From positions 3,764-67,763 of the forward strand of contig CAYING010000003.1 of NCBI GenBank assembly GCA_964364715.1: a DNA stretch of 64,000 nucleotides. Reading direction: 5' to 3'. The notes beneath the pieces were generated by a model. It did not search any database, was not told the origin of the DNA, and was given only the letters and a program-made list of their open reading frames with translations. Origin of the DNA: an uncultured Planctomycetales bacterium. Lineage in GTDB: Bacteria > Omnitrophota > Gorgyraeia > Zapsychrales > GWA2-47-8. Numbering within the stretch: the first letter of the stretch is position 1; each line of letters opens with the position of its first letter. This document shows positions 11,654 through 31,245 of this stretch, in pieces. The translations under genes were made by a program, and so were the position numbers.

Positions 11654-11657
11654 TGCA

Positions 11658-12434
11658 TTATTTCAAGTGAATGGATTTAACAAAACTCTTGAGCGTATCA
11701 CGGCTGCTCAAAACCGCCGGTTTCGGGCCGGTCATTTTAACAAAAATTTGAGAACCTTCTTTTTCAATGACCGCGGCGATCATGCTCGGGGCGTCCGGCG
11801 GAGAATCATTCTGCATCTGAGTAAGGTCGATCAGGGTGACGGGCATTCCCTTGTCCGTGGAAAATTTTTCCTGGCGCTGGATAAAGCTGTCCAATTCTTT
11901 GGCATCCGGGACCGGGATCTTGATCTGCTGGATCCAGCGCGCCACGTTTGCGCTCAGCCCGCCGGCTGATCCGCCTAATGAAACGATGGTTGTTTCGGTC
12001 TTGGGGTCGGTCGAGGTAAATGTCGCCAGCCGCAATCCGCCGCCTCTTTTTTCCGACCATCCCTTGGGCGTTTCCCATTCCAGAGGAGTTTGATCGGCGG
12101 AGGCGCTGATCTGCTGCTGCAGGGCAGGATCGTTCATTCCCTGCATCATGGGAGGTATGTCTTGCTGATTAGAACCCTTTAAGCCGGCGTGGATGTCATC
12201 GTCAGGCATGAGCCCGGCGCGAACGCCATCCTGGGGCATAAGCCCGGCATGGATATCGTCTTGCGGCATACCGGAGAACATTCCTCCGGTTGGCGGGGTC
12301 ATCTTCTTAGGAGCATCCCCGAAGACTTCTGTGTATTGACGGAGTTTGGCAGGCTGTTCACATCCCAGGAACAGAACTGATGTAAGGGAAATATATAAAA
12401 ATAAAAGGCCGAACCGGCCGGAAATCTGCAGCAT
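11658..12434 (-). CDS. Lipoprotein with a tandem peptide repeat (MPxDxIHAGL x3), function unknown
   Basis: Lipobox LFLGC. DNA tandem repeat of ~30 nt at about 12180-12270 encodes MPQDDIHAGLMPQDGVRAGLMPDDDIHAGL. Confidence 0.6.
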   Translation of the reverse strand: MLQISGRFGLLFLYISLTSVLFLGCEQPAKLRQYTEVFGDAPKKMTPPTGGMFSGMPQDDIHAGLMPQDGVRAGLMPDDDIHAGLKGSNQQDIPPMMQGMNDPALQQQISASADQTPLEWETPKGWSEKRGGGLRLATFTSTDPKTETTIVSLGGSAGGLSANVARWIQQIKIPVPDAKELDSFIQRQEKFSTDKGMPVTLIDLTQMQNDSPPDAPSMIAAVIEKEGSQIFVKMTGPKPAVLSSRDTLKSFVKSIHLK

Positions 12435-12517
12435 AAAAATTTTTCTCCCGAAAGTTGGTAGTATCCTAACAAAATGCCATTAAGAATTCAACAGGAAAAG
12501 ACCTTTCCGACAAAAAT

Positions 12518-14014: not shown

Positions 14015-14092
14015 AAAAAGAGGCCTGCTAAATTCTCGCCGGCCGCGTCAAACTGGCGGGATCGTGAAAAGGGCAGAAATTCCGCTAAAAGT

Positions 14093-15529: not shown

Positions 15530-15572
15530 AATCGTTCCGTCCATTGTTTTCCCGTCTAAATTTCTACGATAG

Positions 15573-16130
15573 TTACTCTTTCGGCACCGGGTGCTTGATC
15601 TGTTCGAGTCTTTCCTTGAAATCAAAAGATTTATATGTCGGGGCTTCGGGGTTGTGGCATTTCTTGCAAGTATTTTCATCAGGAATTACCAGGCCCTGCG
15701 CGACCGCTTCTTCCTCATCTTCCATAACGCTTTTCTTCATATAATCCTTGCCGGCGCCGTGACAGGATTCACAGGAAACCCCTTCCTCGACGGTAATCGC
15801 CTCGGTGGCCTTTGCTTCCGTGAAATTATAAGCCGTTGAATGGCATTTCAGGCATTTGCCGCTTGTGGACGGATCATCAATACCTAACTTAGCGGCCTGC
15901 TCTTTGGCCTCCGGGGTCTTTAAGGTCTCAAACGCTTTGGCATGTTTTGACTCCTGCCAGATTTTAAACTGTTCCCCCTGCTCCGGTTTTTTATGGCACA
16001 TGGAACATTTTGTAACTCCCACAAATTCGTGTTCCGCCTGGACGGCGGACATCTCAGCGCCCCACATAAGCATAACTGCACATCCCCCAAAAACTAATAC
16101 GGCATTAATGACTGTTAAGCCTCGTTTCAT
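15573..16130 (-). CDS. Tetraheme cytochrome c
   Basis: Four CXXCH motifs (CSMCH, CLKCH, CESCH, CKKCH). N-terminal signal/anchor. Confidence 0.8.
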   Translation of the reverse strand: MKRGLTVINAVLVFGGCAVMLMWGAEMSAVQAEHEFVGVTKCSMCHKKPEQGEQFKIWQESKHAKAFETLKTPEAKEQAAKLGIDDPSTSGKCLKCHSTAYNFTEAKATEAITVEEGVSCESCHGAGKDYMKKSVMEDEEEAVAQGLVIPDENTCKKCHNPEAPTYKSFDFKERLEQIKHPVPKE

Positions 16131-16161
16131 TTTTTATCCTCCTGTATTCCGGTGAATTAAT

Positions 16162-17313
16162 TTATTTTTCCTGAATCCCTTGATCCGGCTGCGCTGAGTG
16201 CGGAATGCCAAAAATATCAAATTTATATTCTTTGCCGAAAATTTTTTGTTTACTCTCCGAAATAAACCCTAAAACACCAAATACCAATAAAGACAACAAA
16301 ACCAAGACCCCTATGGTCACCGAGATCGGGCGTTTGAACGGATGCCGCTGAGGGCTTCTATCCAAAAAAGGCCACAATAAAAGCAAGACAGGCGCCAGAC
16401 CGACGACAAAAATCCCCAAAAGTTTAGAAAAATATTTCAAAACATGATACATCGGCAAAAAATACCACTCCGGCTTTATCCCCTCGGGAGTGCTTAACGG
16501 ATCGGCCTTTTCGCCCAATTCAAAAGGAGCCAGGATCGATAACGTGATCAAGATACCGAGCAGAATAAAAAAGACGACCCCTTCCTTGAGCATATGGTGC
16601 GGGAAGAACGGGATCCCGTCTTTTACCTTAGTCTCTTTCTCATCCCCCACCGGGTCCATCGTCGCGATCCCCTGAAACCTCACCAAAAATAGATGAATGG
16701 CAATCAAAAAGAAAACCGTCCAGGGAAGGATGATGACGTGGATCACAAAGAAACGGGAAAGAGTTTCTCCGCCGACCGACGTGCCCCCCCGCATCAATGT
16801 CTTCATCCATTCTCCGACAAACGGAATAGCGCCGGCGATCTCTGTCCCGACCGTCGTTGCCCAATACGCCAACTGGTTCCACGGCAGAAGATATCCCGTA
16901 AACCCGAAGACTAACGTCAAAACGAACAGAAAAACACCAATAAGCCAGGTTATTTCCCGCGGTCTTTTGAACGATCCGGTAAAAAATGTGCGCAGCATAT
17001 GCAGAAAGACAACGATCACCATCAAATTCGCCCCCCAGGCATGGACCTGACGGTATAACCACCCCATATACGGTGTGGTCATAATAAATTTAATGCTCTC
17101 AAAGGCTTCATCGACGGTGGGACGGTAATAGATCAAGAGCAATATCCCGGTCAGGACCTGGCTGACAAAAAGGAATAAGGACATGCTTCCGAGGGTATGA
17201 AACCAACCGGTACTTCTGGGAAGCGGTTTTTTGATCTGGTACTGCAGCGACCCTTCGATCTTCTCCAGATCGTAGCGCTTCGACAACCATTCTCTTAAAT
17301 TAAATTTCAGCAT
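16162..17313 (-). CDS. Cytochrome b (fused cytochrome b6 / subunit IV type) of a Rieske/cytochrome b complex
   Basis: Conserved cytochrome b segments: GWFHTLGSMSLFLFVSQVLTGILL, bis-His helix pairs, and PEWYFLPMY of the C-terminal portion. Confidence 0.9.
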   Translation of the reverse strand: MLKFNLREWLSKRYDLEKIEGSLQYQIKKPLPRSTGWFHTLGSMSLFLFVSQVLTGILLLIYYRPTVDEAFESIKFIMTTPYMGWLYRQVHAWGANLMVIVVFLHMLRTFFTGSFKRPREITWLIGVFLFVLTLVFGFTGYLLPWNQLAYWATTVGTEIAGAIPFVGEWMKTLMRGGTSVGGETLSRFFVIHVIILPWTVFFLIAIHLFLVRFQGIATMDPVGDEKETKVKDGIPFFPHHMLKEGVVFFILLGILITLSILAPFELGEKADPLSTPEGIKPEWYFLPMYHVLKYFSKLLGIFVVGLAPVLLLLWPFLDRSPQRHPFKRPISVTIGVLVLLSLLVFGVLGFISESKQKIFGKEYKFDIFGIPHSAQPDQGIQEK

Positions 17314-17345
17314 AAAAATTTTTGTTCCCTTCGCGGAAATTTCGG

Positions 17346-17816
17346 TTACACCTTCACCATGACTCTGCCGTTGACAACGCTCACTTCATGCGGCGGGAGC
17401 GGGCGCGGCGGAGGCCCTGCCACAACTTTTCCATCAAGATCAAAAAGGCCCGCATGGCAAGGGCAGATGATCTCCCGTTTCTTACCGTCCCACTCGACCA
17501 AACACCCTAAATGGGTGCAGATGGCAGAATAGGCCTTAAACCCTTGCGGCGTTCGGATAACCAGAATAGCGCTGCCTGCCACAATTACTTTTTTCCCTCC
17601 CCAGGCCGGAATATCATCCTCGGCGCCGACATCACTTAAACCCCCGGCCGGACCCCGACGGGTCACCGGCCAAAGATAAGCTAAGGCCGGGGCCACCATC
17701 CCGGCCAAGGTCGTGAACAGCCCCAGCCGGATGATCCATCCCAGAAAATCCCTGCGGCTCAAATTTTCCTTTTCCAAAACTGCGGTTTTTACGTGCCCCG
17801 GATTTTCATTTACCAT
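17346..17816 (-). CDS. Rieske [2Fe-2S] iron-sulfur protein
   Basis: Rieske boxes CTHLGC and CPCHAG. Canonical twin-arginine signal SRRDFLG. An internal start (MVNENPGH) abuts the upstream cytochrome gene. Confidence 0.85.
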   Translation of the reverse strand: MVNENPGHVKTAVLEKENLSRRDFLGWIIRLGLFTTLAGMVAPALAYLWPVTRRGPAGGLSDVGAEDDIPAWGGKKVIVAGSAILVIRTPQGFKAYSAICTHLGCLVEWDGKKREIICPCHAGLFDLDGKVVAGPPPRPLPPHEVSVVNGRVMVKV

Positions 17817-17817
17817 A

Positions 17818-19068
17818 TTATTGCCCACTCTTCTTTCGTGCATCCTCTTCAAGCTTTAACCGCTTATATTCCGCGTTCAACGCCAAAACCATGATCAAAA
17901 TGAAAATCCACAGAACAACCAGGCCGACCTTCCGCCACTTAAGCCCTTTGCGTTTACCGTCGATGCTGGCTTTAATTTCCTTGATCTTCACAGCGGATTG
18001 ATTATAAAGATCCGACAACTCATCATAGATCAATTTATGCTGCAGAGGCTGCATTTCCAAAACTTTTGATCTGACCTCCTCCAAAAGCGCTTCTTCCTCT
18101 TCGATAAAAAACCCTTCGATACCGGCCTGCTTAACGATTCCGCGGGTGTCCTTCAGTTCACTATCCGCTTTCTGCAGGATTTTCTTGATCGCCTGGCCTT
18201 GCTGGAACGCTTTGCTCTCCGGCGTATGGCATTTGACGCACGCCTGGTCATAAAGGGCAATGCTGACCGGCTGGACATCATGATTGCTGTGGCAGGAAAC
18301 ACATTCCGAAAATTTATCCCCCTCAGTGATCGAGGCATGGACGCTTTCCAAAAAACGGGCCTTCTCATTGATATGGCATTTACCGCACGTGGCGCCGACC
18401 TCTCTGAATCCAGGCGGAACCGCCCCGTGGCTGCCGTGACAGCTGGCGCAGTTGGCGGCCGAGGTATCGCCTTTTTCGAATAATGCTTTTCCGTGAACGC
18501 TGTTTTTGTATTTTTCGAATACATCCGACGGGAGGCCAAAGGAATGCATCAACTTTTCATTCCCGTGGCACTTGGCGCAGGTCTTAGGAAGATTGCCGGG
18601 ATAGACCGAACTGTTCGGGTCAGAGATCTTCAGGACTTCATGATATCCATGGCAATCACTGCAGACGGCAACTTTGGTATTACCCTCTTCCAAAAGTTTT
18701 TTGCCATGATGACTTGTCTTATATTGGGCGAGTTGATCGGTACGGGTCCCATAAAAATTCATGGTACTGACATCCGAATGACAATTGCCGCAGAGCTCCA
18801 TGGTCTGCTTTTTGTCCGGGATACCGATATAACCCGTTCCCGGGCCCTTGGCTAAGTCCTTGTCATCCTGGGCGGGATCACCGCCGTGGCATTTATTGCA
18901 GTAAATTCCCTGCTGAGAGTGAGCGCTCCCCTTGACCTCATCCCACATATCCGAATGACATGCAACGCAGGAATTCCCTCCAATTTCCTGCGAAAAAGTA
19001 AAATTGGCAAAGCTGAGAAATATAATTATTAGATAAATGATCTTCATAAATTTCCCTAAAAGGATCAA
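17818..19068 (-). CDS. Nonaheme cytochrome c with C-terminal transmembrane anchor (occupies the cytochrome c1 position)
   Basis: Nine CXXCH motifs. Signal peptide. C-terminal TM helix VGLVVLWIFILIMVLAL. Confidence 0.8.
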   Translation of the reverse strand: MILLGKFMKIIYLIIIFLSFANFTFSQEIGGNSCVACHSDMWDEVKGSAHSQQGIYCNKCHGGDPAQDDKDLAKGPGTGYIGIPDKKQTMELCGNCHSDVSTMNFYGTRTDQLAQYKTSHHGKKLLEEGNTKVAVCSDCHGYHEVLKISDPNSSVYPGNLPKTCAKCHGNEKLMHSFGLPSDVFEKYKNSVHGKALFEKGDTSAANCASCHGSHGAVPPGFREVGATCGKCHINEKARFLESVHASITEGDKFSECVSCHSNHDVQPVSIALYDQACVKCHTPESKAFQQGQAIKKILQKADSELKDTRGIVKQAGIEGFFIEEEEALLEEVRSKVLEMQPLQHKLIYDELSDLYNQSAVKIKEIKASIDGKRKGLKWRKVGLVVLWIFILIMVLALNAEYKRLKLEEDARKKSGQ

Positions 19069-19113
19069 AAAAGCAAATTCACAAGGCCTTCCTTAAAATA
19101 AAGACCTTTGGCT

Positions 19114-19896
19114 TCAAGCATAACTATGCAATGTTGAAAAAAACAAATTTACCCCAATGTAGGTAAAAAGAATAACTACAAACCCCAACATTGTTAAAAG
19201 AGCGGCATTAAGACCGCGTAAATTCCGTGTATGGCGCAAATGAAGACAGCCGGCATAGATCAACCACGTTGTTAATGCCCATATTTCTTTGGCATCCCAA
19301 TTCCAGAATCTTCCCCAGCTGATACTGGCCCATATAGAACCGCAGGCCAACCCCACCGTTAAGAAAGGGAACCCCCTGTCAAGCACTTGGAAAATCATCC
19401 CCTCAAGACTATCCAATAAAGCCTTATTATTACCGCGATAGCGCAAAATATTGATGATATAAACAAGGCTCAAACCAAAGGCTATCGCGAAACTGGCATA
19501 AGCAATAAGATAAGATCCCACATGAAAATAGAGCCAGCCGCTTCTCAATGACGGCATCAGCGGACGTATGGCATCATTAATAAAAAGGGAGAATACCAGC
19601 AAACACAACGCCACTACAATCCCCAGCAATTTGATCCAGCGGAACCCCAACCGGAACGCGGCATAAAAGCTCAACATCACAATCAGCCAGGCAAAAACGA
19701 TCAATGTTTCATACGTATCGGTTAATGGAAAACGCTGCGCTTCAATAGCTCGTTTGACAATCAAATAGCCGTGCAATCCCCACCCTGTCATCAAAAAAGA
19801 GCCTTCAATAACAGTAAAAAAATTTTCCCTAACCTTCCCGGCTATGAGGAAAAAAACCAGGGACAAAAAATAGAGGACAATGACTCCTATCATCAT
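19114..19896 (-). CDS. ccsA: Cytochrome c biogenesis protein CcsA (second, canonical-length copy)
   Basis: WWD motif WGRFWNWDAKEIWAL. Eight TM segments. Confidence 0.85.
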   Translation of the reverse strand: MMIGVIVLYFLSLVFFLIAGKVRENFFTVIEGSFLMTGWGLHGYLIVKRAIEAQRFPLTDTYETLIVFAWLIVMLSFYAAFRLGFRWIKLLGIVVALCLLVFSLFINDAIRPLMPSLRSGWLYFHVGSYLIAYASFAIAFGLSLVYIINILRYRGNNKALLDSLEGMIFQVLDRGFPFLTVGLACGSIWASISWGRFWNWDAKEIWALTTWLIYAGCLHLRHTRNLRGLNAALLTMLGFVVILFTYIGVNLFFSTLHSYA

Positions 19897-21236
19897 AACC
19901 CTTCCATCCTCCGCTCTATGTCCTTAACAATTTTTTGTATTTCCTTCTCAAAGGAAAATACATTTTTGCACTTCATGGCTCGAGCGCTAACATACGAGGT
20001 CATGTTTGAAATATCTTCTTTAACAGTGATAACCAAACCGCGATAAAACCGGTAACTGCTTAAAAAAGATCCGGCAACAAGCAAAATCAGCCCAAAATAT
20101 GTTATATACTCGCCGGGATTCTTCGCGTATTTTATGCCGGAGGTATACCGGGACTTAATGCCGTCCAGCATGAACCTCAATTTCTCCGGAGTCTCCGTGG
20201 ATCCTGTATGAGGCATCACTCCGCGGAAAACCCACTGCTCCCGAGCCGGCAAAGAAGAATTGGCCGGTGAATAAATCAAAAGATAACCGGCCGGATTCCT
20301 TAATATATGACTTCGGGTTGAAGGCTGGTTATTCTCATCGATAAAAAAATCCGGGATAAAATTTTTAACCTTTAAAGCGATATTCAACTCGGGAACAGCG
20401 ACCAGATTATCAACACCCATCGTCAAAATCTTAACCGGCTGACTTTCATTTTCACGGAAGATGGCAATGCGTAACTCGTCAATATCAAAACTAAATCTCT
20501 GCTGATAAAGCCTAACACCTTCGATTCTTAAGGGGCCATTGACTTTTAATGTGCGCCATTCTATGGGTTTTCCCGGACGGTTGATTCTTAAGCGGCTGGC
20601 ATAATCATCAGTTTTTTCTTTAGCGGCGCTTGGGATAACCGCGAATTTTTCCAGCGTTAATAAAGCGTCCGTCCCCTCCAACGGGATCGTTTCTCCTTCG
20701 CGAATGGAAAAATCATAAAACCTTCCGCCCCCGGCCGTAATTATGCCGGCTAACAACAATACCGCAACAGCCAGATGAACGATATGTGAACCGAAGATAT
20801 TAAATTTTGCTTTTTCATAAAAAAATCTCTCTTCGCCTTGGCCTGGCTCACAATAAGCCGTCTTACGATAACGCCATTGACTTAAGACCTGGTGAATATG
20901 CTCTGTGACAAGCTGTCTATTTTTTTTCTTAAAAGAAAAATTAAAAACTTCTTTCTCCGCTAACGAAGAGAAGAAATTGCGGAAGGATTCCTTATCTTGT
21001 ACAGAAGAAAATATTCTCTTATGGTATTGATAAAATTTGATGAGTCCCGGCCATCGTCTGACCGAACAATACCCCATCATCAAGACGATATAACACAAAT
21101 AGCCCAAAAACAAACGGTTTTGGAAAACCGCTCTGAAGGAAGGAGAAACGCCCAGCAGACTGATCAGTCCGAGAGAAAGGAGCAGGAAGATCGTTAAGGG
21201 GACAGATAGAAAGATCCTATCAAAAAATTTAAGCAT
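19893..21236 (-). CDS. ccsB: Cytochrome c biogenesis protein CcsB/ResB (second copy)
   Basis: ResB-like topology. 4-nt overlap with the downstream ccsA. Confidence 0.75.
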   Translation of the reverse strand: MLKFFDRIFLSVPLTIFLLLSLGLISLLGVSPSFRAVFQNRLFLGYLCYIVLMMGYCSVRRWPGLIKFYQYHKRIFSSVQDKESFRNFFSSLAEKEVFNFSFKKKNRQLVTEHIHQVLSQWRYRKTAYCEPGQGEERFFYEKAKFNIFGSHIVHLAVAVLLLAGIITAGGGRFYDFSIREGETIPLEGTDALLTLEKFAVIPSAAKEKTDDYASRLRINRPGKPIEWRTLKVNGPLRIEGVRLYQQRFSFDIDELRIAIFRENESQPVKILTMGVDNLVAVPELNIALKVKNFIPDFFIDENNQPSTRSHILRNPAGYLLIYSPANSSLPAREQWVFRGVMPHTGSTETPEKLRFMLDGIKSRYTSGIKYAKNPGEYITYFGLILLVAGSFLSSYRFYRGLVITVKEDISNMTSYVSARAMKCKNVFSFEKEIQKIVKDIERRMEGL

Positions 21237-21272
21237 CGAGTTACTATTAAACCATACTTTGTCCCCGATTAA

Positions 21273-23312
21273 TTAAAATTTTCTGTTATAAACGACTTCC
21301 GCGCCTACCCCATGATAATCATCAAAATCGTTATAACCGCCGTAGCCGACGGTCTTTGCATTAAAATTGTAGTATTCAAGACGGGCCGAAATGCTTGCAT
21401 CATCATTTAAACTATGGTTAGCGCTGAGCCAGAGTTTATCAAGGCTATTTCTGATCGTTCCATCAACTTCGTTATGTTGCAACCCAAAACCGGTTGACGT
21501 CTTATTCGTAAATCGATAACTTCCGCCGAGTAAGCCGACATAACGATTGACTTTATAATCAAAAGCCTTACCCCCCTGATAGAAGGTGGAATTGGTGGAA
21601 ATCCCCTCTCCGGGAGTATACAAACCCTGAAGTTCCCCCATCAGCATGAATGTAAGGGTAAATTTATCCGTTAAAAGACCCATCAAATTTCCTGAAATGG
21701 CATTGCGCATCATTTGCATGCCATTTTGACCTTGTTGACGTGCATACCCCAAGTCATTATCTTCATAAATATACTGCAGGCCGCCGTTCCATTTTTTAGT
21801 AATGCTGGCGTTGTAGCCTAAGGTGACTTGATCAATTGTCTGATCCGAACTCCCCATATAACCGGGATAGGATGCCGGCAAATTGTCCCTTACGTTTTCG
21901 TATTTTCTTCTTTTATCGGCATGTTTATACTTCGCCGTTACCTTTGATTTATCATTTAGCCTGGTTGAAAGTAGAAACGTATTAATAATATCGTTGTTCC
22001 GGATATTGGTTTCGCGGTCGATGGTCCTTTCTGCCCCTGTTACCGCATAGTCGCTAACCATTTCGTAACTGCTGATATCGGCCAGCTCGCTCCAATTCAA
22101 CTTTCTTTGTTCCAACTCCAGGGTATAAGACAGGTTGGTCTTTTTTATGCCGGTATAGGCCACAGAGAAAGTTTCCCCATACTGGTATTCCGACTGGTCG
22201 GACTCGGCTTTCCTCACCACAGTCCCCCCTCTAAACCCGTCTCCTTCAGCTTCCGTTTCCGCGTTCTCAAAACGCGTATTAAACCCGATACGGAGGTCTT
22301 TTATCAAACTATCTAAATTCACCAACCCCAAATTAAGGATATTGGCCTTCCGCTCATTACTTGTATCCGGGTTAATGAATTGATTCAAAGTGGTCCCGGA
22401 CGCGGCGACCCCGCCGGATATCGGCCGTAATTCCGTACGGGTCGTCCTGTTCTTTAAATCCTGAAAAAGATAGTTGGTCGCAAGATACGTCTTTTCAGAT
22501 AGAAAACTGTTATAGCTGGCATGCGTTAATGATTCCTGAAATTGCGGCTCATCGTAGTAGTTTCTTTGTTGGTTTAATGCCCCATTGGAATACCGCGAGG
22601 AAAGGATGGCCTGATCATCATGGTAAAGTTCGATCTGCTGTTTGAGGGCCACATTATGTTTTTCATTGATCTGCTTGGAGAGCTGAACAAAAGCCTTGTC
22701 GCTTACGCCATCGACATCCGCCGCGATCACACTGGAGCGCAGCGTGTTCAATCCGGTGAAAGCAACCTCCTCACCGCGCAACAATGTTTCCTGTCCATTA
22801 CGTGACCAGCGGGTATATCCGATGGTCACATCAGGAAGACTATCCAGTTTAATCCCGTATTCCACATCCGTATCAAACCGGTCCGTATAGGTATGATTAT
22901 CTTTCTTTTCAGCCGTTTCCCTTCCAAGCCCATAACTTGCCGGATCCCATGGTTCGTTGGAACCGTCATAATAGCGGCGGGTCAGCCGGGTATTCAGTTT
23001 AAGAAAATAAGAATCTTCTTTTGCTAAATCCAAATTCAATCCATAATCACCATCATAAAGAGCATGAGCTTCAATAGACAAAATGGCATCTTTAATATTG
23101 CCGCTCAGCATTAATTCCTCAAGCCCGCCGGAATAGTTATCGGTGACATAATTATCTTCCCTAAAGCGGCCCTCATCGCCGTCAATGACCATAAAACGGG
23201 AACCGATCTTGAAGGAATCCAAGGTCAAAGATGATTTTGCGTGGGCGACATCCCAAGACAAAAATACCGCCATACAAAGGAACAAATAGTGTAATATTAT
23301 TTTTCTATACAT
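21273..23312 (-). CDS. Outer-membrane beta-barrel protein (679 aa), candidate porin partner of the adjacent periplasmic multiheme cytochrome (MtrB/PioB-like role)
   Basis: Signal peptide. Alternating amphipathic beta-strand pattern throughout. C-terminal aromatic residue (…VVYNRKF). Lies immediately downstream of a periplasmic heptaheme cytochrome. Confidence 0.55.
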   Translation of the reverse strand: MYRKIILHYLFLCMAVFLSWDVAHAKSSLTLDSFKIGSRFMVIDGDEGRFREDNYVTDNYSGGLEELMLSGNIKDAILSIEAHALYDGDYGLNLDLAKEDSYFLKLNTRLTRRYYDGSNEPWDPASYGLGRETAEKKDNHTYTDRFDTDVEYGIKLDSLPDVTIGYTRWSRNGQETLLRGEEVAFTGLNTLRSSVIAADVDGVSDKAFVQLSKQINEKHNVALKQQIELYHDDQAILSSRYSNGALNQQRNYYDEPQFQESLTHASYNSFLSEKTYLATNYLFQDLKNRTTRTELRPISGGVAASGTTLNQFINPDTSNERKANILNLGLVNLDSLIKDLRIGFNTRFENAETEAEGDGFRGGTVVRKAESDQSEYQYGETFSVAYTGIKKTNLSYTLELEQRKLNWSELADISSYEMVSDYAVTGAERTIDRETNIRNNDIINTFLLSTRLNDKSKVTAKYKHADKRRKYENVRDNLPASYPGYMGSSDQTIDQVTLGYNASITKKWNGGLQYIYEDNDLGYARQQGQNGMQMMRNAISGNLMGLLTDKFTLTFMLMGELQGLYTPGEGISTNSTFYQGGKAFDYKVNRYVGLLGGSYRFTNKTSTGFGLQHNEVDGTIRNSLDKLWLSANHSLNDDASISARLEYYNFNAKTVGYGGYNDFDDYHGVGAEVVYNRKF

Positions 23313-23327
23313 GTTGCCCCCCTTCGT

Positions 23328-24149
23328 CTATCGATTAAGCGTTTTCCAAATATTTGAGCCATGCACGGCCCGGTGGTGGTCAATACATTCCTGACCCTTC
23401 CCAATATAATAATCTCCGCCTGATCCTGCTTTCGTACCATGCTGAATAGCGCCGATAGTGCCGGTTGACGTATTAAAAGAAGGTTCCCAGTGGCAACGCA
23501 GACACAAATTCGCCTGATCCGCGACCAGCATCTTATCGTAAACAGCGCCATGCGGGTTATGGCACGTCTGACATCCTTCACGCATAACGTCGTGTTCAAA
23601 CACAAACGGCCCCTTCATTTCCTTATGACATTTAAAGCACGATTGATCGGATTTCTGAAGAGAGACCGTATTCATCGTTTCAAGTTCCGTCCCATGAGGG
23701 TTGTGGCAGTCTGTACACTTCATGCGTCCCTCCACCACCGGATGATGGTACTGTAAAAGAAATTCTCCTTTTTTATCCATATGGCAACTGAAGCAATTCT
23801 CCGGATCATAGCGGACAATATCTTTTTTGCTTTGACTCTCCGCGTGTTTACTTCCCGCTCCGTGACAACTTTCACAACCTCCGCCCAAAACATCCTCCTT
23901 CTCCCCGAGAACTCGATAGTGAGAAGTTAAAGAAAACCGTTGAGCTTGTTCCTCATGACACGTGGCACAGGTCTCGGTGCCGACATACGTTGCCCCCTTG
24001 ATCGCCGGAGGCATAATCCCCTCACCCGAGAAAGAATTCTTCAAAAATACCGGGGCAAATAAAAACAAAGCGGTCAACAGACAAAGAGAAACTATTGCCA
24101 TCCGCTTGTGATGAGACCGCCCCGTTCCTGATTGAATCGTTTTGTCCAT
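23328..24149 (-). CDS. Periplasmic heptaheme cytochrome c (MtrA/DmsE-like electron shuttle candidate)
   Basis: Seven CXXCH motifs in 273 aa. N-terminal signal peptide. Confidence 0.8.
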   Translation of the reverse strand: MDKTIQSGTGRSHHKRMAIVSLCLLTALFLFAPVFLKNSFSGEGIMPPAIKGATYVGTETCATCHEEQAQRFSLTSHYRVLGEKEDVLGGGCESCHGAGSKHAESQSKKDIVRYDPENCFSCHMDKKGEFLLQYHHPVVEGRMKCTDCHNPHGTELETMNTVSLQKSDQSCFKCHKEMKGPFVFEHDVMREGCQTCHNPHGAVYDKMLVADQANLCLRCHWEPSFNTSTGTIGAIQHGTKAGSGGDYYIGKGQECIDHHRAVHGSNIWKTLNR

Positions 24150-24184: not shown

Positions 24185-25222
24185 TTAGACTCCGACTTCC
24201 TCCATCGTGCTGATCTTTGCCAATTTCCCGTAAAATGCCGCGATCTTCTCTTGAATCATCGCTTCCACCTGCTTCACACATAACGAACGCTGCTGAACAC
24301 TCCCCTCAACGACCTTATCCAAATCATCGATCTCCTTTAAAATAACATTGGGGACATCCGCGACAGCCGGATCGATATTCCGCGGAATGGAAATATCGAT
24401 GCACAACAACTTTTTTTCACGGCAGGACATGATCTGCGCGATCAAATCCTTTTCAATCAGATAATGCGCACAGCTGGCCGAACAAATACACACATCCGCC
24501 TGTTCCAAGATTTCTTTGATCTGCCAGAACCCGGCGGCAACCCCGCCGTATTGCCGGGCTAGATCTTCGGCTTTTTCCTGGCTTCGGTTCATGACAAAAA
24601 TCTTTCCGATGCCCTTTTGCTGAAACTGACTGGCCGCCAATTTTCCCATCTTCCCGGCGCCCAGGATCAAAACGGATTTATCATTTAATTGACCCAAAAT
24701 ATTTTCCGCCATTTTTATGGCCGCCCAGCTGATCGAAGAACCGCCGGCATCGATCTCTGTTTCAGCCCTGGCCTTCTTCCCGATCCGGATGGCAAGGTTG
24801 GTCAGGATATTGAACTGTTTGCCCAGCATCCCTGCCGTGCGGCTCAATTCCGTCGCGACCTTCACCTGTCCCAAGATCTGTTTTTCGCCCAGGATAAGAG
24901 AATCCAGCCCGGTGGAAACAGAAAAAAGATGCCGAATGGCATCTTTCTCTTTTTTTACATAAAAATATTTCATAAGGTCATCGGAAAAATGGAGGTCCTT
25001 AATCTTAAAAAGCGACTTAACCAGAAGCGCCGGATCATCATCCAGAAGATGCGCGTAGATCTCAGTGCGGTTGCAGGTCGACAAGATCAGCGCTTCCACG
25101 ACCGAAGACTCGTTCTTTAAATGGGAAAGCAATAATTCTCTCTCAACGGTCCTCAAAAAGAATTTTTCTCTTATTTCAACCGGGCACTTTTTATGGCTGA
25201 CGCCGACAACGCACAGATGCAT
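24185..25222 (-). CDS. hemA: Glutamyl-tRNA reductase HemA
   Basis: Catalytic motif LSTCNRTEIY. NADPH-binding LILGAGKMGKLAA. Internal Met start (MHLCVVGVSHK) preferred over the track start at 25243. Confidence 0.85.
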   Translation of the reverse strand: MHLCVVGVSHKKCPVEIREKFFLRTVERELLLSHLKNESSVVEALILSTCNRTEIYAHLLDDDPALLVKSLFKIKDLHFSDDLMKYFYVKKEKDAIRHLFSVSTGLDSLILGEKQILGQVKVATELSRTAGMLGKQFNILTNLAIRIGKKARAETEIDAGGSSISWAAIKMAENILGQLNDKSVLILGAGKMGKLAASQFQQKGIGKIFVMNRSQEKAEDLARQYGGVAAGFWQIKEILEQADVCICSASCAHYLIEKDLIAQIMSCREKKLLCIDISIPRNIDPAVADVPNVILKEIDDLDKVVEGSVQQRSLCVKQVEAMIQEKIAAFYGKLAKISTMEEVGV

Positions 25223-25249
25223 TCTTCCCTCTCCTAGGTTCAATTAGGT

Positions 25250-25771
25250 TCAATGGTGAACGCTTAACTTCGAAATCAGGACATCCTGCTCTTCCGCCTT
25301 CAACCGGCGCATCATCTTGTAAATATTCTGCCCCTCGACTTGCAGATGATTGCGGACCAAACACACCAGATAGATCCCGTGGTCCCTCAATTTGGCGGCC
25401 AATTTTTGCTCTCCGGTGTCGGTCTTGGCCTTCTCAGCTTTTAAAAATAGCACTTCCAGCGCCTTAAATTCTTCTCTGATCTCAGCATGTTCCCCCTTAA
25501 AATACTCGAGAATCGGCTCATACTTAGGGATATGCTTTTGAAAAAACGGGAAAAGTTTATCGTCGTCAAACTTCATATGCGGGAAGAGATCCTTCTTTAT
25601 CGACCGTACGCTGCGGAATACATTCCGGATATTGCGCCGCACAAAGATCTTCCCTTCGTATTGAAGGTTGTTGAGCGCTGCGTAAAGTTTATTGACCTCT
25701 TTAAGCATTTCGGAATGTTCCGACTCTAAGCCCTGGATGGCTTTTTCTATCCTTGGATTCCGGCTGACCAT
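25250..25771 (-). CDS. Hemerythrin-like (HHE cation-binding domain) protein, paralog 1
   Basis: Four His/carboxylate helix motifs (ESEHSEM, HMKFDDDKLFP, GEHAEIREEF, RNHLQVEG). Paralogous to 59929..60567. Confidence 0.5.
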   Translation of the reverse strand: MVSRNPRIEKAIQGLESEHSEMLKEVNKLYAALNNLQYEGKIFVRRNIRNVFRSVRSIKKDLFPHMKFDDDKLFPFFQKHIPKYEPILEYFKGEHAEIREEFKALEVLFLKAEKAKTDTGEQKLAAKLRDHGIYLVCLVRNHLQVEGQNIYKMMRRLKAEEQDVLISKLSVHH

Positions 25772-25814
25772 AGAATTCTTTTAATTTTATTCTACTCAAA
25801 CCGGAGCTTTTGTC

Positions 25815-25830
25815 TGTGACTGCGGTCACA
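25815..25830. promoter_or_regulatory. Perfect CRP-type palindrome TGTGAC-N4-GTCACA between the Crp/Fnr gene and the hemerythrin-like gene
   Basis: tgtgactgcggtcaca, centred about 52 nt upstream of the ATG at 25771. It matches the TGTGA-N6-TCACA architecture. Confidence 0.5.
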
Positions 25831-25840
25831 AAGGCCTTAA

Positions 25841-26506
25841 CTATTTCAAAAGCTGTTTTTCCAGCGCCTCTTTATCGCATATAAGGATGCGCGGGGGCTT
25901 CAGGTCTACCAATGCCTTATCTTTAAGTTTTTTAAGATGCCGGGTGACTGTTTCACGAACCAAACCCAACCTTTGAGCGATCTCTTCGTGGGTAAATGAA
26001 ATACCGGGAACTGACTCGCTCATATTGAGCAGGAATTTGATCAAGCGTTTTTCCGGGGCATCCAAGGACACCTCTTCCACCAAAGAACTCATCCGGCATA
26101 AACGCTGGGCAAAAATGCGGGTTAAGGCTTGAGCCAGTGTGGAATTGCTTTTGACCATTTGCACATATTGGCTGCGGCTCACGATCCCCAGCTCGCAATC
26201 CGACATCGCCTGGGCCGATGAAGAACAGCTCCACTGCGTCGCGCCGGGGTTGCAGGCGCAGGTATCGCCGGACCCGAGGATCTCCAGGATCTGTTCCCGG
26301 CCATTGAGAGAAGTCCGGAATATTTTGACCCGCCCGGATAAGACAAAAAATATCTCCCGGCAGGATTCTCCGGCGGTCGAAATGACCTTATTTTTTTCAA
26401 AAATTTTTCGGATAATAGTGGGGGCGATCGCCTGCTTTTCCTTGAGCGACAAGTCGCGGAACAGTGATATGTTTTGGATCATATCTGGAGTAATGCGTGA
26501 CGACAT
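25841..26506 (-). CDS. Crp/Fnr-family transcriptional regulator with an internal Cys cluster, paralog 1
   Basis: cNMP-binding beta-roll plus C-terminal HTH (EIAQRLGLVRETVTRHLKKL). Conserved motif GDTCACNPG..WSCSSSAQA..DC. Start chosen by alignment with the paralog at 60718..61419. Confidence 0.85.
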   Translation of the reverse strand: MSSRITPDMIQNISLFRDLSLKEKQAIAPTIIRKIFEKNKVISTAGESCREIFFVLSGRVKIFRTSLNGREQILEILGSGDTCACNPGATQWSCSSSAQAMSDCELGIVSRSQYVQMVKSNSTLAQALTRIFAQRLCRMSSLVEEVSLDAPEKRLIKFLLNMSESVPGISFTHEEIAQRLGLVRETVTRHLKKLKDKALVDLKPPRILICDKEALEKQLLK

Positions 26507-26640: not shown

Positions 26641-27639
26641 TTACAAAATAGTTCGGTAAGTCTTCAAAGCCCGCATATAATACGCCCGCTCAAATGACCC
26701 CGGGCTGGCGCAAGATTTCTGGCTCATACTCCCCTGCATCTGAGCAACGGAATCGTATTCGTGCTCTTCCATCCATTGCTCCAGTTCCTTTAAGATGGAA
26801 CGGAGTTCACTGATCCCATTTTTCAATAAAATAGAGCACATCATGGCCACATCCGCTCCGACCATCAGCATTTTAATAACATCGGCCGCCGAATGGACCC
26901 CGCTGGTCGCCGCCAAGCTTGCCTTGATCTGTTTGTGAAGGATCGCGATCCAGCGCAGCGGAAGCCGCATGGCCTGCGGCGTACTCAAAAGAATATTGGG
27001 CAAGATCTCTAAATTATCCAAATCTATATCCGGCTGGTAAAACCGGTTGAACAGGACCAGGGCATCGGCTCCGGCGTCGTCAAGGCGTTTGGCCATATTG
27101 GCCATGGAGCTGAAAAACGGCCCGATCTTTACGGCGACCGGGATCTTCACGTTCGATTTTACCGACTTAAGGATGTTTAAATATTTCTCTTCAACTTCGG
27201 CTGAACCGACGTTAATGTCGGTGGGAATAAAATAAATATTCAACTCCAAGGCATCCGCCCCCGCCTGCTCGATGAGCTTGGCGTAACGCGTCCATCCTCC
27301 GTCGGAATAACCGTTCAGGCTGGCGATCACGGGGATGCCGACCGATCTTTTCGCCTTAGCGATATGGTCCAGATATTCTTCCGGCCCGATGATCAGATCA
27401 GCCGGTTCAGGAAAATAGGTCAAGGACTCCGCGAAACTATCCGTCCCCTGAATGGAATAATTATAGAGTTCATACGTTTCACGCGTGATCTGCTCCTCAA
27501 AAATGGATTCATTAACGATCGCGGCGGCCCCCGCGTCTTCCAATTTTTTGAAATTATCCAGATTCTTCGTCAGCGGTGAGGCCGAGACCACCAGCGGATT
27601 TTTTAATTTCATTCCCATATAGCGTGTTGTAAGGTCCAT
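26641..27639 (-). CDS. Dihydroorotate dehydrogenase-like TIM-barrel flavoprotein
   Basis: PyrD-family segments (GADALELNIYF, PVAVKIGP, GADALVLFNR, ATSGVHSAADV). Confidence 0.65.
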   Translation of the reverse strand: MDLTTRYMGMKLKNPLVVSASPLTKNLDNFKKLEDAGAAAIVNESIFEEQITRETYELYNYSIQGTDSFAESLTYFPEPADLIIGPEEYLDHIAKAKRSVGIPVIASLNGYSDGGWTRYAKLIEQAGADALELNIYFIPTDINVGSAEVEEKYLNILKSVKSNVKIPVAVKIGPFFSSMANMAKRLDDAGADALVLFNRFYQPDIDLDNLEILPNILLSTPQAMRLPLRWIAILHKQIKASLAATSGVHSAADVIKMLMVGADVAMMCSILLKNGISELRSILKELEQWMEEHEYDSVAQMQGSMSQKSCASPGSFERAYYMRALKTYRTIL

Positions 27640-27669
27640 ACTTCCTCCCTGCCCCGCCTGTGGCGGGGC

Positions 27670-30600
27670 TCAAACTTTTGATTGCTCTGCCGGCGCGGGG
27701 GCATCATGGGTTTCCGCGGCCATCGCTTGATAGACCGCCCATCGGTCAAATATATCGTCCTGCGCCAGTGCCATCAATTGCTTGGCTCTCTCGGGATGGG
27801 TTTTAGCCAGCATCCGGAAACGGTTCTGCCGGTCGGCATATTCTTTGAACGGGATCTTCGGCGACTCTGAATCCAGGATCAGCGGATTCTTTCCTTGCTG
27901 GGCAAGCTCAGGGTTATAGCGGAACAACGGCCAATATCCGCTTAAGACAGCCGCTTTATGGTCCTGAAGGGCTTGCGTCATATTGATCCCGTGGGCGATG
28001 CAGTGAGAATAGGCGATGATCAGGGATGTGCCCTCGTAACGTTCAGCCTCGAGAAAGACTTTTAAAGTGTGTTCATCCTTGGCCCCGAAGGCGACCGCGG
28101 CCACATAAACATTCCCGTAGGTCATGGCAATGCGCGCCAGGTCTTTTTTAGGAGATGATTTTCCCGATGAAGCAAATTTGGCCACCGCGGAACGGGGAGT
28201 GGCCTTCGATGATTGCCCGCCGGTGTTGGAATAGACTTCCGTGTCCAAAACCAAAATATTGACATTGCGCCCGGCCGCCATCACATGGTCAAGCCCGCCG
28301 AAGCCGATGTCATACGCCCACCCGTCGCCGCCGATGATCCATACGCTCTTTTTAACCAATGTGTCGGCGAGGCTCATAAGCTGCGCGGCTTCGGGAGATC
28401 TTATTTTTCTGATCTTTTCTTTAAGGATCTCGACGCGCTTACGCTGTTCAAAAATATCCGCCTCATCTTTTTGCGGTGATCCCAGGATCGCCTGGATCAA
28501 TTCCGTGCCGATGTGCGATTCCATACCTTTAAGCAACTCTCCCGCGAATTGCTGCTGTTTATCCAAAGCAAGACGGAAGCCAAAACCGAATTCGGCATTG
28601 TCCTCAAACAAAGAATTCGACCAGGACGGCCCCCGCCCTTCTTTATTTTTTGTCCATGGGGTCGTGGGTAAATTCCCGCCGTAAATGGACGAGCATCCGG
28701 TCGCGTTGGCGATCATGGCCCGGTCACCGAAGAGCTGGCTCATTAATTTCAGATAAGGCGTCTCCCCGCAGCCGGAACACGCGCCGGAGAATTCAAATAA
28801 AGGCTCTAAGACCTGGACGCCGCGGACCGAATTCTGTTTGACCTGCGAACGGTCCATTTCCGGAAGATTTAAAAAGAAATCCCAATTTTGTTTTTCCGCT
28901 TCTTTTAACGGCGGCTGGGGATTCATGTTGAGAGCTTTTAATCTTGTTTCGGATTTATTCTTGACCGGACAAACCTCGACGCACAAACTGCATCCGGTAC
29001 AATCTTCCGGCGCCGCCTGGATCGTATAGGCCTTCCCCTGAAATTCACGGTCACGGGCGGCAACAGTTTTAAAAGTCTTCGGCGCCTCCGCGGCCAAGCC
29101 GGTTTCATAAACTTTAGAGCGGATAACCGAATGCGGGCAGACAAAAACACACTTTCCGCATTGGATGCATATGCTCTCATCCCAGACCGGGATCTCCAGA
29201 GTGATATTGCGTTTTTCATATTTTGCCGTCCCGACCGGATAAGTCCCATCCGCCGGCAAAACGCTCGTCGGGATCTGATCACCGCAGCCGACCATAATCC
29301 GGGCGGTCAATTTCTTGACGAATTCCGGCGCGGACGGTGATACCGCCGCCGGCTTCTCAATTGTGCTCGTGGCCTTTTGCGGGACTTCGATCTTATGCAG
29401 ATGAGCCAAGGCGTGATCGACCGCGTCATAATTCATCCGCACGATCTCCTCGCCTTTTTTGCTGTATGTTTTTTCGATATATTTCTTAATGGCATTGATC
29501 GCTTCTTCCTTAGGAAGGATCCCGGAGATGGCAAAGAAACATGTCTGCATAATGGTATTGATCCGTCCGGCCATACCGGATTCATACGCCACTTTATATC
29601 CGTCAATAACATAAAATCGGCATTTCTTGTCGATGATCTGCTGCTGGACATCGCGCGGAAGTTTATCCCAGGTCTTATCCGCTGCGATAGGGCTGTTGAG
29701 CAAAAATACCCCGCCTTCATCCAGCTTCTCGAGGACATCGTATTTTTCCAGGAATCCAAAAGCATGGCATCCCACAAAGTTAGCCCGGCTCACCAGATAA
29801 GAAGAATGGATCTGTTTAGGCCCAAAACGTAAATGCGAAACCGTGATCGACCCGGATTTCTTTGAATCATAAACAAAATACCCTTGCGTGAAATAATCGG
29901 TATTCTCGCCGATGATCTTGATGGTGCTTCTATTGGCGCTGACCGTTCCATCCGAGCCGAGCCCGTAAAAAATAGCCCTGACTCCCGTCGGGCTTTCGAT
30001 CGTAAAATCCTCATCATAGTCAAGGCTGGTCTGGGACAGGTCATCATTAATACCAACGGTAAAATGATTCTTCGGCTGCTTCTTGGCCGTCTCATCATAA
30101 ACCGCCTTGATCATCGCCGGCGTAAATTCCTTGGACGATAAGCCGTACCGCCCGCCGATGACAACCGGCAATTTCTTGAATTTACCGCTGCCGGCCTCAT
30201 AGAGCGCGCCGATCACGTCGAGATAAAGCGGTTCACCGACGCCGCCCGGTTCTTTCGTGCGGTCCAGGACAGCTAACACCTCTACGCTGGAAGGCAACTC
30301 CTGGATAAAATCCTTAATCGAAAATGGACGGAAAAGCCTGATCTTCAACAAACCCACCTTCTCGCCTTTAGCGGTCAATTTGTCGACGGTATCCTGCGCC
30401 GCCTCCGCGCCCGAACCCATGATCACAATGACCCGTTGAGCATCCTGCGGCCCATAATAATCAAATAATTTATATTTCCTCCCGGTCAATTGAAAAAATT
30501 TGTCCATCGACTTCTGGATGATCCCTGGGCAAACGGCATAATACGGATTGACCGTTTCGCGGGATTGAAAATAAACATCGGGATTTTGCGCGGTCCCGCG

Positions 30601-31245
30601 GATGACCGGCCGGTCCGGCGACAAGCCTCTTAAGCGATGCGCCAGGACCAGAGATTCATCGATCATGCTTCTGATCTGTTCATCGCTGACCGGTTCGATC
30701 TTGGCTATTTCATGAGAGGTGCGGAAACCATCGAAAAAATGAATGAAGGGAATGCGGGACTCTAATGTTGCGGCATGCGAGATGAGAGCAAAATCCATGA
30801 CTTCCTGTACGCTCGACGAGCACAACATCCCGAAACCGGTCGCGCGCGCCGCCATGACGTCGGAATGGTCCCCGAAAATCGACAGCGCCTGCGTGGCCAA
30901 CGACCGCGCCGCGACGTGAAAGACCGTCGGGGTCAATTCTCCGGCGATCTTGTACATATTCGGGATCATCAAAAGTAATCCCTGCGAACAGGTAAAGGTC
31001 GTGGTCAAGGCCCCGGTCTGTAACGCCCCGTGAATCGCGCCGGCGGCGCCGCCCTCGCTCTGCATCGGCTGAACCAAGGGAACCGTTCCCCAGAGATTTT
31101 TTTCGTCAGCCGCCATCAATTCGTCGGCTTTCTCTCCCATAGGCGAAGAAGGCGTAATGGGATAGATCGCGATCACCTCACTGACCTTAAAGGCGATCGC
31201 CGCGGCTGCTTCATTCCCTTCCACAATGACAAATTTATTTCTCAT
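27670..31245 (-). CDS. por: Pyruvate:ferredoxin (flavodoxin) oxidoreductase, single-chain PFOR
   Basis: 1191 aa. Ferredoxin-domain motifs CIQCGKCVFVCP and CTGCSLCVEVCP. TPP-binding GGDGWAYDIGFGGLDH. Confidence 0.95.
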   Translation of the reverse strand: MRNKFVIVEGNEAAAAIAFKVSEVIAIYPITPSSPMGEKADELMAADEKNLWGTVPLVQPMQSEGGAAGAIHGALQTGALTTTFTCSQGLLLMIPNMYKIAGELTPTVFHVAARSLATQALSIFGDHSDVMAARATGFGMLCSSSVQEVMDFALISHAATLESRIPFIHFFDGFRTSHEIAKIEPVSDEQIRSMIDESLVLAHRLRGLSPDRPVIRGTAQNPDVYFQSRETVNPYYAVCPGIIQKSMDKFFQLTGRKYKLFDYYGPQDAQRVIVIMGSGAEAAQDTVDKLTAKGEKVGLLKIRLFRPFSIKDFIQELPSSVEVLAVLDRTKEPGGVGEPLYLDVIGALYEAGSGKFKKLPVVIGGRYGLSSKEFTPAMIKAVYDETAKKQPKNHFTVGINDDLSQTSLDYDEDFTIESPTGVRAIFYGLGSDGTVSANRSTIKIIGENTDYFTQGYFVYDSKKSGSITVSHLRFGPKQIHSSYLVSRANFVGCHAFGFLEKYDVLEKLDEGGVFLLNSPIAADKTWDKLPRDVQQQIIDKKCRFYVIDGYKVAYESGMAGRINTIMQTCFFAISGILPKEEAINAIKKYIEKTYSKKGEEIVRMNYDAVDHALAHLHKIEVPQKATSTIEKPAAVSPSAPEFVKKLTARIMVGCGDQIPTSVLPADGTYPVGTAKYEKRNITLEIPVWDESICIQCGKCVFVCPHSVIRSKVYETGLAAEAPKTFKTVAARDREFQGKAYTIQAAPEDCTGCSLCVEVCPVKNKSETRLKALNMNPQPPLKEAEKQNWDFFLNLPEMDRSQVKQNSVRGVQVLEPLFEFSGACSGCGETPYLKLMSQLFGDRAMIANATGCSSIYGGNLPTTPWTKNKEGRGPSWSNSLFEDNAEFGFGFRLALDKQQQFAGELLKGMESHIGTELIQAILGSPQKDEADIFEQRKRVEILKEKIRKIRSPEAAQLMSLADTLVKKSVWIIGGDGWAYDIGFGGLDHVMAAGRNVNILVLDTEVYSNTGGQSSKATPRSAVAKFASSGKSSPKKDLARIAMTYGNVYVAAVAFGAKDEHTLKVFLEAERYEGTSLIIAYSHCIAHGINMTQALQDHKAAVLSGYWPLFRYNPELAQQGKNPLILDSESPKIPFKEYADRQNRFRMLAKTHPERAKQLMALAQDDIFDRWAVYQAMAAETHDAPAPAEQSKV

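Follow-up and report, generated by a model that had tools for sequence, protein, structure and literature searches.

FNR is an O2 sensor whose [4Fe-4S] cluster is held by three N-terminal cysteines (C20, C23, and C29) together with C122, and in Bacillus subtilis Fnr, the iron-sulfur (Fe-S) ligands are located at the C terminus, with the addition of one Asp. The Crp/Fnr members FLP and CprK carry redox-active Cys pairs, and the heme-ligand pair of CooA is Cys75/His77. For CRP, specificity mutants at E181 are classical, and in cyclic-nucleotide-binding domains, the beta2-beta3 loop packs against the phosphate-binding cassette. Here, we describe a clade of Crp/Fnr-family regulators whose invariant Cys fall in that loop and in the cassette segment. 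The clade is represented by two paralogous modules, each comprising a regulator gene, a palindromic operator, and a hemerythrin-like gene at the head of a respiratory operon, within a stretch of 64,000 nucleotides (nt) of contig CAYING010000003.1 (GenBank assembly GCA_964364715.1; phylum Omnitrophota), which is referred to below as the window. Omnitrophota are, to our knowledge, widespread and almost entirely uncultivated, and we know of no account of how their respiration is regulated.

Of the nitric oxide (NO)-responsive Crp-family regulators of Desulfovibrio, HcpR1 recognizes the site TGTGA-N6-TCACA, and HcpR2 contains an Fe-S cluster (PMC5701242). Genes resembling those for hemerythrins, ferredoxins, or cytochromes are frequent in predicted HcpR regulons, and there is co-evolution of recognition helix and operator (PMC1274295). 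A search of the literature found no description of the present regulator clade or of a Crp/Fnr-hemerythrin pairing in Omnitrophota.

RESULTS

Two paralogous modules share one layout

The two modules have the same organization, as the initial annotation of the window had proposed: on the minus strand in both cases, a regulator gene is followed by a perfect 6-4-6 palindrome, a hemerythrin-like gene, and then a respiratory operon. The two regulators, R1 and R2, are 53% identical (E = 3e-85), and the two hemerythrin-like proteins, H1 and H2, are 38% identical (E = 3e-34; BLASTP). The components are as follows.

Module 1
25841..26506, minus strand: R1, Crp/Fnr-family regulator of 221 amino acids (aa) (Pfam cNMP_binding and HTH_Crp_2)
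25815..25830: operator 1, perfect 6-4-6 palindrome TGTGACCGCAGTCACA (TGTGAC-CGCA-GTCACA), with CRP-type half-sites TGTGA-N6-TCACA
25789..25794, minus strand: predicted -10 hexamer TAGAAT (promoter scan, CAGACA-16-TAGAAT)
25250..25771, minus strand: H1, single-domain hemerythrin-like (RIC/YtfE-like) protein, first gene of the operon (Pfam Hemerythrin, E = 1.2e-11)

Module 2
60718..61419, minus strand: R2, paralogous regulator (Pfam; BLASTP against R1)
60629..60644: operator 2, perfect palindrome TGTATCTCCAGATACA (TGTATC-TCCA-GATACA)
60601..60609, minus strand: predicted -10 region, TATATG or TATGAT (sequence inspection)
59929..60567, minus strand: H2, hemerythrin-like paralogue (BLASTP against H1)

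The gap between regulator and hemerythrin-like gene, which had been put at about 70 nt for both copies, is 69 nt in module 1 and 150 nt in module 2, and it contains operator 1 and operator 2, respectively. The start of H1 is uncertain, with 173 aa in one gene call versus 152 aa in another; the true ATG of H2 lies at 60567, preceded by the ribosome-binding site AAGGAG, and the listed TTG start of its open reading frame (ORF) at 60645 is over-extended.

Four invariant cysteines define a clade of Crp/Fnr regulators

Pfam PF00027 and PF13545 are both above threshold in R1 and in R2, which places the two proteins in the Crp/Fnr superfamily. An AlphaFold2 model of the regulator has the canonical CRP fold (predicted local distance difference test score, 88), and Foldseek gave template modeling scores of about 0.82 to 0.86 against structures of MtbCRP, GlxR, Clr, and holo-FNR.

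A Cys motif with five Cys, inside the effector domain rather than in an FNR-type N-terminal cluster, had been described for both regulators. The motif is present and its location is as described, with C83 to C94 in the cassette segment and no Cys in the N-terminal extension. It has four Cys in R1 (C83, C85, C94, and C104), not five, and a fifth, invariant Cys, C49, lies upstream of it. In an alignment with E. coli CRP and FNR, C49 sits in the beta2-beta3 loop, and C83 to C94 align with the phosphate-binding cassette segment. Neither the Cys count nor the gap length affects the earlier interpretation. Among 120 homologues, C49, C83, C85, and C94 are conserved in 100% and C104 in 85%, and R2 bears the same invariant Cys set as R1.

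The boundary of the clade was defined by a full HMMER search of 1.84 billion cluster representatives. The four Cys were present only in the best ~28 representatives, and the next-best Crp/Fnr proteins had no C83, C85, or C94 and typically had Glu in the column of C85, which corresponds to CRP E72; the Cys set thus defines a sharply bounded clade, and the conservation of the motif in orthologues marks its edge. The ~28 clusters are almost entirely from Omnitrophota, and an identical R1 is present on Hainich groundwater metagenome contigs. A profile-guided scan with one genome per species yielded ~72 loci, nearly all from metagenome-assembled genomes (MAGs) of Candidatus Omnitrophota or from third-party annotation bins with the label PVC (Planctomycetes-Verrucomicrobia-Chlamydiae). 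No NCBIfam family reached its cutoff for R1, R2, H1, or H2; the Fnr model scored 39.8 and 58.9 bits against a cutoff of 228, and the CRP model scored 59 bits against a cutoff of 266. The clade is represented by no NCBIfam model and by no PDB entry. A cyclic nucleotide effector is unlikely because the cAMP-binding residues are replaced, with Cys at the E72 column where the outgroup has Glu.

Two further Cys patterns were observed. R2 has an extra insertion, C-x-C-x4-C-x-C (QECQCGRENCICV; 60880..60920, residues ~171 to 183), between the dimerization-helix region and the helix-turn-helix, which is also found in loci L004 and L023, is missing from R1 and most of the family, and may provide the switched-operator subclade with a second metal site of its own. 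In addition, distant Crp/Fnr proteins outside the clade (L073 and L074 from Treponema; PDB 3dv8 from Eubacterium rectale) retain the Cys of the C49 and C83 columns, followed a few residues later by another (ESC-x5-C), a possible trace of an earlier, incomplete form of the Cys site among HcpR-like regulators.

The operators recur at a fixed distance from a predicted promoter

Operators were discovered de novo: all 6-4-6 palindromes past the stop codon of the regulator gene were considered, and TGTGAC-N4-GTCACA with at most one mismatch was recovered in most loci. About 55 independent loci have a palindrome at this position, a recurrence that rules out a chance origin. Across 49 sites of the operator 1 type, GTGA and TCAC are invariant, which is due in part to the criterion by which sites were selected, and the 4 nt between them vary freely; fixed half-site cores combined with a variable spacer indicate recognition by a protein rather than an RNA structure. 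Furthermore, 26 additional sites were found elsewhere in the ~700 kb of loci, versus ~1.5 expected by chance according to our own estimate, and 17 of the 20 examined in Omnitrophota loci were intergenic; in these, a co-directional gene followed at 34 to 390 nt, and the -10 spacing was often preserved. Recurrence upstream of other genes, on which the initial annotation had made its case depend, is therefore borne out.

A TAnnnT hexamer starts exactly 21 nt past the palindrome in 39 of the 55 sites, with no other offset represented by more than 8. Taking the hexamer as -12 to -7, this spacing puts the center of the palindrome at -41.5, and the predicted position is that of a classical class II CRP/FNR activator site. 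For operator 1, TAGAAT begins 20 nt after the palindrome, giving a center at about -40.5 to -41.5; for operator 2, TATATG or TATGAT at +20 to +22 gives about -41.5 to -42.5, and in orthologous promoters of the operator 2 type, TATACT lies exactly 21 nt after the palindrome. Together with the conserved GAC(A), the 3' end of the palindrome makes up a partial -35 element (CAGACA), with which the site overlaps.

One other candidate in the window was rejected. A one-mismatch copy of operator 1, TGCGACCTTTGTCACA (10571..10586, minus strand), lies in the 3' end of a ResB-like ORF, ~56 nt upstream of a CcsA-like gene, and is probably a chance match, since it is inside the ORF and has no TAnnnT at +21. 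Outside the clade, the Acidobacteriota loci L076, L077, and L078 contain Crp/Fnr genes without the Cys loop that have sites of the type TGTGAC-N4-(G/A)TCACA (one mismatch), ~150 to 200 nt upstream of their own starts; TGTGAC-type sites are thus not unique to the Omnitrophota clade.

Recognition helix and operator change together

The initial annotation had linked the difference between the two operators to diverged recognition helices, ETVTRHL versus VTVARHL. Both helices are present as described, and the substituted residue aligns with CRP E181. In the R1 helix, RETVTRHL, residues R184, E185, and R189 align with R180, E181, and R185 of CRP; in the R2 helix, RVTVARHL, the corresponding residues are R197, V198, and R202, with V198 at the E181 position. 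R1 thus combines the CRP-type triad with TGTGA-N6-TCACA, and R2 departs from it at position 181. The R-E helix occurs in 106 of the 120 homologues, and the R-V/I/L helix occurs in 11.

The proposed link holds across loci. TGTGAC-N4-GTCACA accompanies R-E-x-x-x-R regulators, and every R-V/I/L locus examined (the window, L004, L023, L082, L083, and L086) has TGTATCTCCAGATACA or a one- or two-base variant of it in a conserved promoter. In the R2-type switch, the R180 equivalent and the G that it contacts are kept, and the bases change from G to A and from A to T. CRP genetics assigns these same bases to residue 181. A comparative analysis of HcpR, DNR, and NnrR likewise found that positions 180 and 181 co-evolve with operator bases in this family, and the bases changed here are those that it assigned to residue 181 (PMC1274295). 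All R-V/I/L proteins fall in one subclade, which implies a single evolutionary event. A third specificity class was considered for L041 and other unmatched helices and was rejected; these have the R-E helix with degenerate GTGAC-type sites.

The hemerythrin-like partner is a single-domain relative of YtfE

The designation of both partner genes as hemerythrin-like stands for H1, which scores 45.6 bits against Pfam Hemerythrin (PF01814; gathering threshold, 25.3), and less firmly for H2, which at 20.7 bits (E = 6e-4) is under the threshold and has K19, N80, and R95 at ligand positions. The family was assembled from the regulator loci, and a word-indexed homologue search with H1 returned H1 alone; of 51 family members, 50 match Pfam Hemerythrin (E <= 0.01). 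The best PDB match of the family profile is YtfE (RIC), over the region of the YtfE ligands H129, E133, and H160. Family members are single-domain proteins of about 150 to 190 aa, and Pfam scans found no ScdA_N domain in them, which sets them apart from two-domain RIC proteins; NCBIfam FeS_repair_RIC scored 22.8 bits against a cutoff of 204.7.

The conserved positions of the family are E39, N47, H65, E/D69-70, F74-P75, H80, P82, E94-H95, Y134, H142, E146, and E161. H1 has residues at all candidate ligand positions (H19, E39, H65, D69/70, H80, H95, H142, and E146). H65, H80, H142, E39, and E146 are each present in 47 to 54 of 56 members, H95 is kept in 39, and H19 is kept in only 20. K19 and R95 are shared by the orthologues of H2, and N80 is found in H2 alone. 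A mirror-tree comparison of the regulators with the hemerythrin-like proteins gave a moderate correlation (r = 0.47) that is confounded by phylogeny, and it was not used as evidence of physical interaction.

Operon content and conservation across Omnitrophota

Pfam and NCBIfam assignments agree with the operon contents first proposed, with module 1 leading hemA and cytochrome genes and module 2 leading a molybdoenzyme. The principal downstream features are as follows.

24185..25243, minus strand: hemA (glutamyl-tRNA reductase), 6 nt downstream of H1 (Pfam GlutR_N and Shikimate_DH)
8560..24149, minus strand: co-directional respiratory cluster with multiheme cytochromes c, two ResB/CcsA pairs, Rieske and cytochrome b subunits, and a NapC/NirT-like protein (Pfam)
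59088..59972, minus strand: TtrB/DsrO-like 4Fe-4S subunit (Pfam, NCBIfam)
55754..59011, minus strand: TtrA-like molybdopterin oxidoreductase, 1,085 aa (Pfam, NCBIfam)

The first gene after hemA in module 1 encodes a multiheme cytochrome. Further downstream in module 2 are genes for a Porin_5 protein, MoaA, and TatC, and upstream of R2 are genes for TatA, a NapG-like ferredoxin, and a TorD-like chaperone. The predicted regulon content covers heme, cytochrome c maturation, molybdenum (Mo) enzymes, Mo cofactor, and Tat. None of the annotated genes is a classical NO-detoxification gene. Likewise, hcp was not seen among the annotated genes of the window or the locus matches to window proteins, in a survey in which no search was aimed at hcp and most locus genes were unannotated.

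In ~50 of 70 loci, the next gene after the regulator, in the same orientation, encodes a homologue of H1/H2, and the genes that follow it vary and are recurrently respiratory. The order regulator, hemerythrin-like gene, hemA, and cytochrome (plus a 679-aa protein of unknown function) was found in six other loci; in three more, hemA comes directly after the regulator or occurs without a confidently called regulator. A second order, consisting of a 411-aa protein, the FeS subunit, a 383-aa protein, and the TtrA-like enzyme, was found in L004, L018, L023, and L082. MoaA follows the module in four loci, and Rieske and cytochrome b subunits follow it in three.

Several features of the neighboring genes were unusual. 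The hemA product is short (352 aa), with GlutR_N and the NADP domain Shikimate_DH only and the C-terminal dimerization domain unmatched in Pfam. System II cytochrome c maturation is represented by two separate ResB/CcsA pairs in one co-directional cluster at 8560..21236, and the second CcsA-like protein is unusually long (651 aa). Directly upstream of R1, at 26641..31245, are a 1,191-aa ORF resembling pyruvate:ferredoxin oxidoreductase and a dihydroorotate-dehydrogenase-like protein (NF005741); the Hainich contig L001 shows the same two neighbors. At 53725..59972, the TtrA-like/TtrB-like pair is followed by the Porin_5 outer-membrane protein and an unknown 220-aa protein, unusual partners for a Ttr/Psr-type enzyme, and the genes for H2 and the FeS subunit overlap by 44 nt.

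DISCUSSION

We favor, with moderate confidence, a reading in which the regulators of this clade are Cys-metal or Fe-S sensors of redox state, O2, or NO that activate anaerobic respiratory operons headed by a RIC/YtfE-like di-iron protein. This reading draws directly on the fold of the regulator, the invariance of its Cys, the synteny of the modules, the conservation and position of the operators, and the co-variation of helix and operator.

From this evidence we infer the cofactor, the signal, that the regulator activates rather than represses, and what the hemerythrin-like protein does, as follows. A dimeric CRP/FNR-fold factor, with four invariant Cys in place of the cyclic-nucleotide pocket, would most probably carry a metal center with thiolate ligands, either an Fe-S cluster or one of another kind, that reports O2, redox state, or NO and gates the binding of the dimer to DNA. 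The active regulator would bind the 16-bp palindrome at about -41.5 and activate a class II promoter, driving the RIC/YtfE-like di-iron hemerythrin protein first and then an anaerobic respiratory operon. The predicted output would be heme synthesis, cytochrome c maturation, multiheme cytochromes, and a Rieske/cytochrome b complex for module 1 and a TtrBA-like molybdoenzyme for module 2. In R2 and its orthologues, the Glu equivalent to CRP E181 is replaced by Val, Ile, or Leu, and the operator has changed from GTGAC to GTATC; given both changes, R1 and R2 should read different sites. The constant first place of the hemerythrin-like gene in the operon suggests feedback on the sensor: its product would probably protect, repair, or tune the metal center of the regulator or buffer O2 or NO. 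The YtfE-NsrR and DnrN-DnrD pairs are analogous to such feedback (PMC1274295, PMC5701242).

A bolder form of this proposal is doubtful in our judgment: a new class of CRP/FNR sensor with a Cys4 metal or Fe-S center in the nucleotide pocket, which would form a two-protein relay with an obligate, co-inherited di-iron hemerythrin that binds O2 or NO and sets the oxidation or assembly state of the cluster. If true, a whole uncultivated phylum would control its respiration mainly through this relay, copied and given a new address from one operon to the next.

Ligation of heme rather than an Fe-S cluster, which would make the regulator a CooA- or HcpR-like thiolate-heme sensor of CO, NO, or heme availability, is unlikely. 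The pocket sequence C-x-C or C-x-C-H resembles the Cys75/His77 pair of CooA, and many family members have CACH. In module 1 and eight other loci, moreover, hemA and cytochrome c maturation genes come after the regulator, mostly directly after the hemerythrin-like gene, so that heme-responsive control would be sensible, and HcpR1 is thought to use heme (PMC5701242). However, heme ligation needs fewer than four invariant Cys, and many modules control Mo enzymes or MoaA without any heme genes. We regard as equally improbable a structural Zn site or a thiol-disulfide switch like that of FLP or CprK, with no Fe-S cluster. Cys4 is a classic Zn ligand set, invariance of the Cys alone fits either arrangement, and redox-active pairs have the precedent of those two proteins, but here the Cys site replaces the effector pocket itself, which points to a sensory rather than a structural role, and an Fe-S center fits better with the constant presence of a RIC-like, putatively di-iron partner that has relatives acting on Fe-S clusters.

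Somewhat less credible again is a regulator that represses by covering the -35 element, with loss of the cofactor causing de-repression, as proposed for HcpR2 of Desulfovibrio desulfuricans. The site does overlap the partial element CAGACA, and a repressor model has been described for HcpR2 (PMC5701242), but the predicted fixed center at -41.5, seen in 39 of 55 promoters, is a hallmark of class II activation, and the -35 elements are weak (four of six matches at best), as expected of activator-dependent promoters. That the palindromes are RNA hairpins or terminators of the regulator transcript, as their place just past the regulator stop codon and a possible 6-bp stem with a 4-nt loop might suggest, is effectively refuted by the missing T-run and the empty terminator scan at both palindromes, by arms that are invariant over 49 loci with no compensatory changes while the loop varies, by a distance that is fixed to the -10 hexamer and ranges from -4 to >300 nt from the stop codon, and by the palindrome sites upstream of other genes.

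Several observations weigh against the Fe-S or metal-sensing activator that we favor. Only one perfect copy of each palindrome is present in the 64-kb window, and a site that overlaps the -35 region could also repress. The co-variation of helix and operator represents a single subclade, that is, n = 1 phylogenetically, and paralogues in other genomes mostly share the GTGAC operator, so that the predicted insulation of paralogues is confined to the R-V/I/L subclade and is not general. In roughly 20 of 70 loci, some of them on truncated contigs, no hemerythrin-like gene could be detected as the next gene after the regulator. Position 95 is Arg in 14 of 56 hemerythrin-like proteins, including H2 and all of its orthologues, and judging from these residues, the di-iron site may not be universal in the family. 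As to the signal, the lack of a classical NO-detoxification gene among those annotated favors O2 or redox over NO.

The module offers a concrete and testable regulatory code, with two operators, a fixed promoter geometry, and a specificity-determining residue, in a sensor family whose putative metal site occupies a location new to the CRP/FNR fold. The module is also a natural experiment in the repurposing of a ligand pocket and in the possible insulation of paralogous regulators by a single helix substitution, and the operator motif can be used for regulon prediction in Omnitrophota MAGs.

Comparison with known systems

The regulators resemble FNR of the E. coli and A. fischeri type in the CRP fold, the presumed Cys-based sensing, the class II promoters at -41.5 (predicted in the present clade), and the anaerobic respiratory operons. 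R1 and R2 differ from FNR sensu stricto in having no N-terminal Cys cluster, their invariant Cys being in the beta2-beta3 loop and the phosphate-binding-cassette segment rather than in the N-terminal extension, and in having no E-x-x-S-R helix with TTGAT-N4-ATCAA: FNR pairs V-E-x-x-S-R with that site, whereas R1 pairs R-E-x-x-x-R with TGTGA-N6-TCACA. Bacillus subtilis Fnr provides a precedent for relocated Fe-S ligands within an FNR-like sensor, but its ligands are C-terminal and include one Asp, whereas the Cys described here lie inside the beta-roll pocket.

The likeness to CRP consists in the R180, E181, and R185 equivalents of R1, an operator that matches the consensus half-sites TGTGA..TCACA, and the change in R2 at the E181 position, which parallels the classical specificity mutants. 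In contrast to CRP, the cAMP-contacting cassette residues (G71, E72, R82, and S83) are replaced by the C83-A-C85...C94 loop, which separates the clade from cAMP receptors. HcpR1 shares with the clade a CRP-type site, HcpR2 shares an Fe-S cluster (putative in the present regulators), and HcpR regulators share predicted hemerythrin-like targets and helix-operator co-evolution; the Cys motif sets the Omnitrophota clade apart from all other Crp/Fnr representatives. The RIC pairs YtfE-NsrR, DnrN-DnrD, and NorA-NorR are similar in that the partner has a YtfE-like, putatively di-iron domain and its gene, like dnrN or ytfE, is a predicted direct target of the sensor regulator. They differ in that the hemerythrin-like gene is here physically part of the regulator module and the first gene of a respiratory operon, that its product is a single domain without ScdA_N, and that part of the family, including H2, lacks His at some ligand positions. 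The clade is thus built of known parts, in that a CRP fold and a RIC-like, putatively di-iron domain are combined with an operator of the CRP type and a predicted class II geometry, and it is distinct in the location of its Cys, in its fixed hemerythrin-like partnership, and in its restriction to one phylum.

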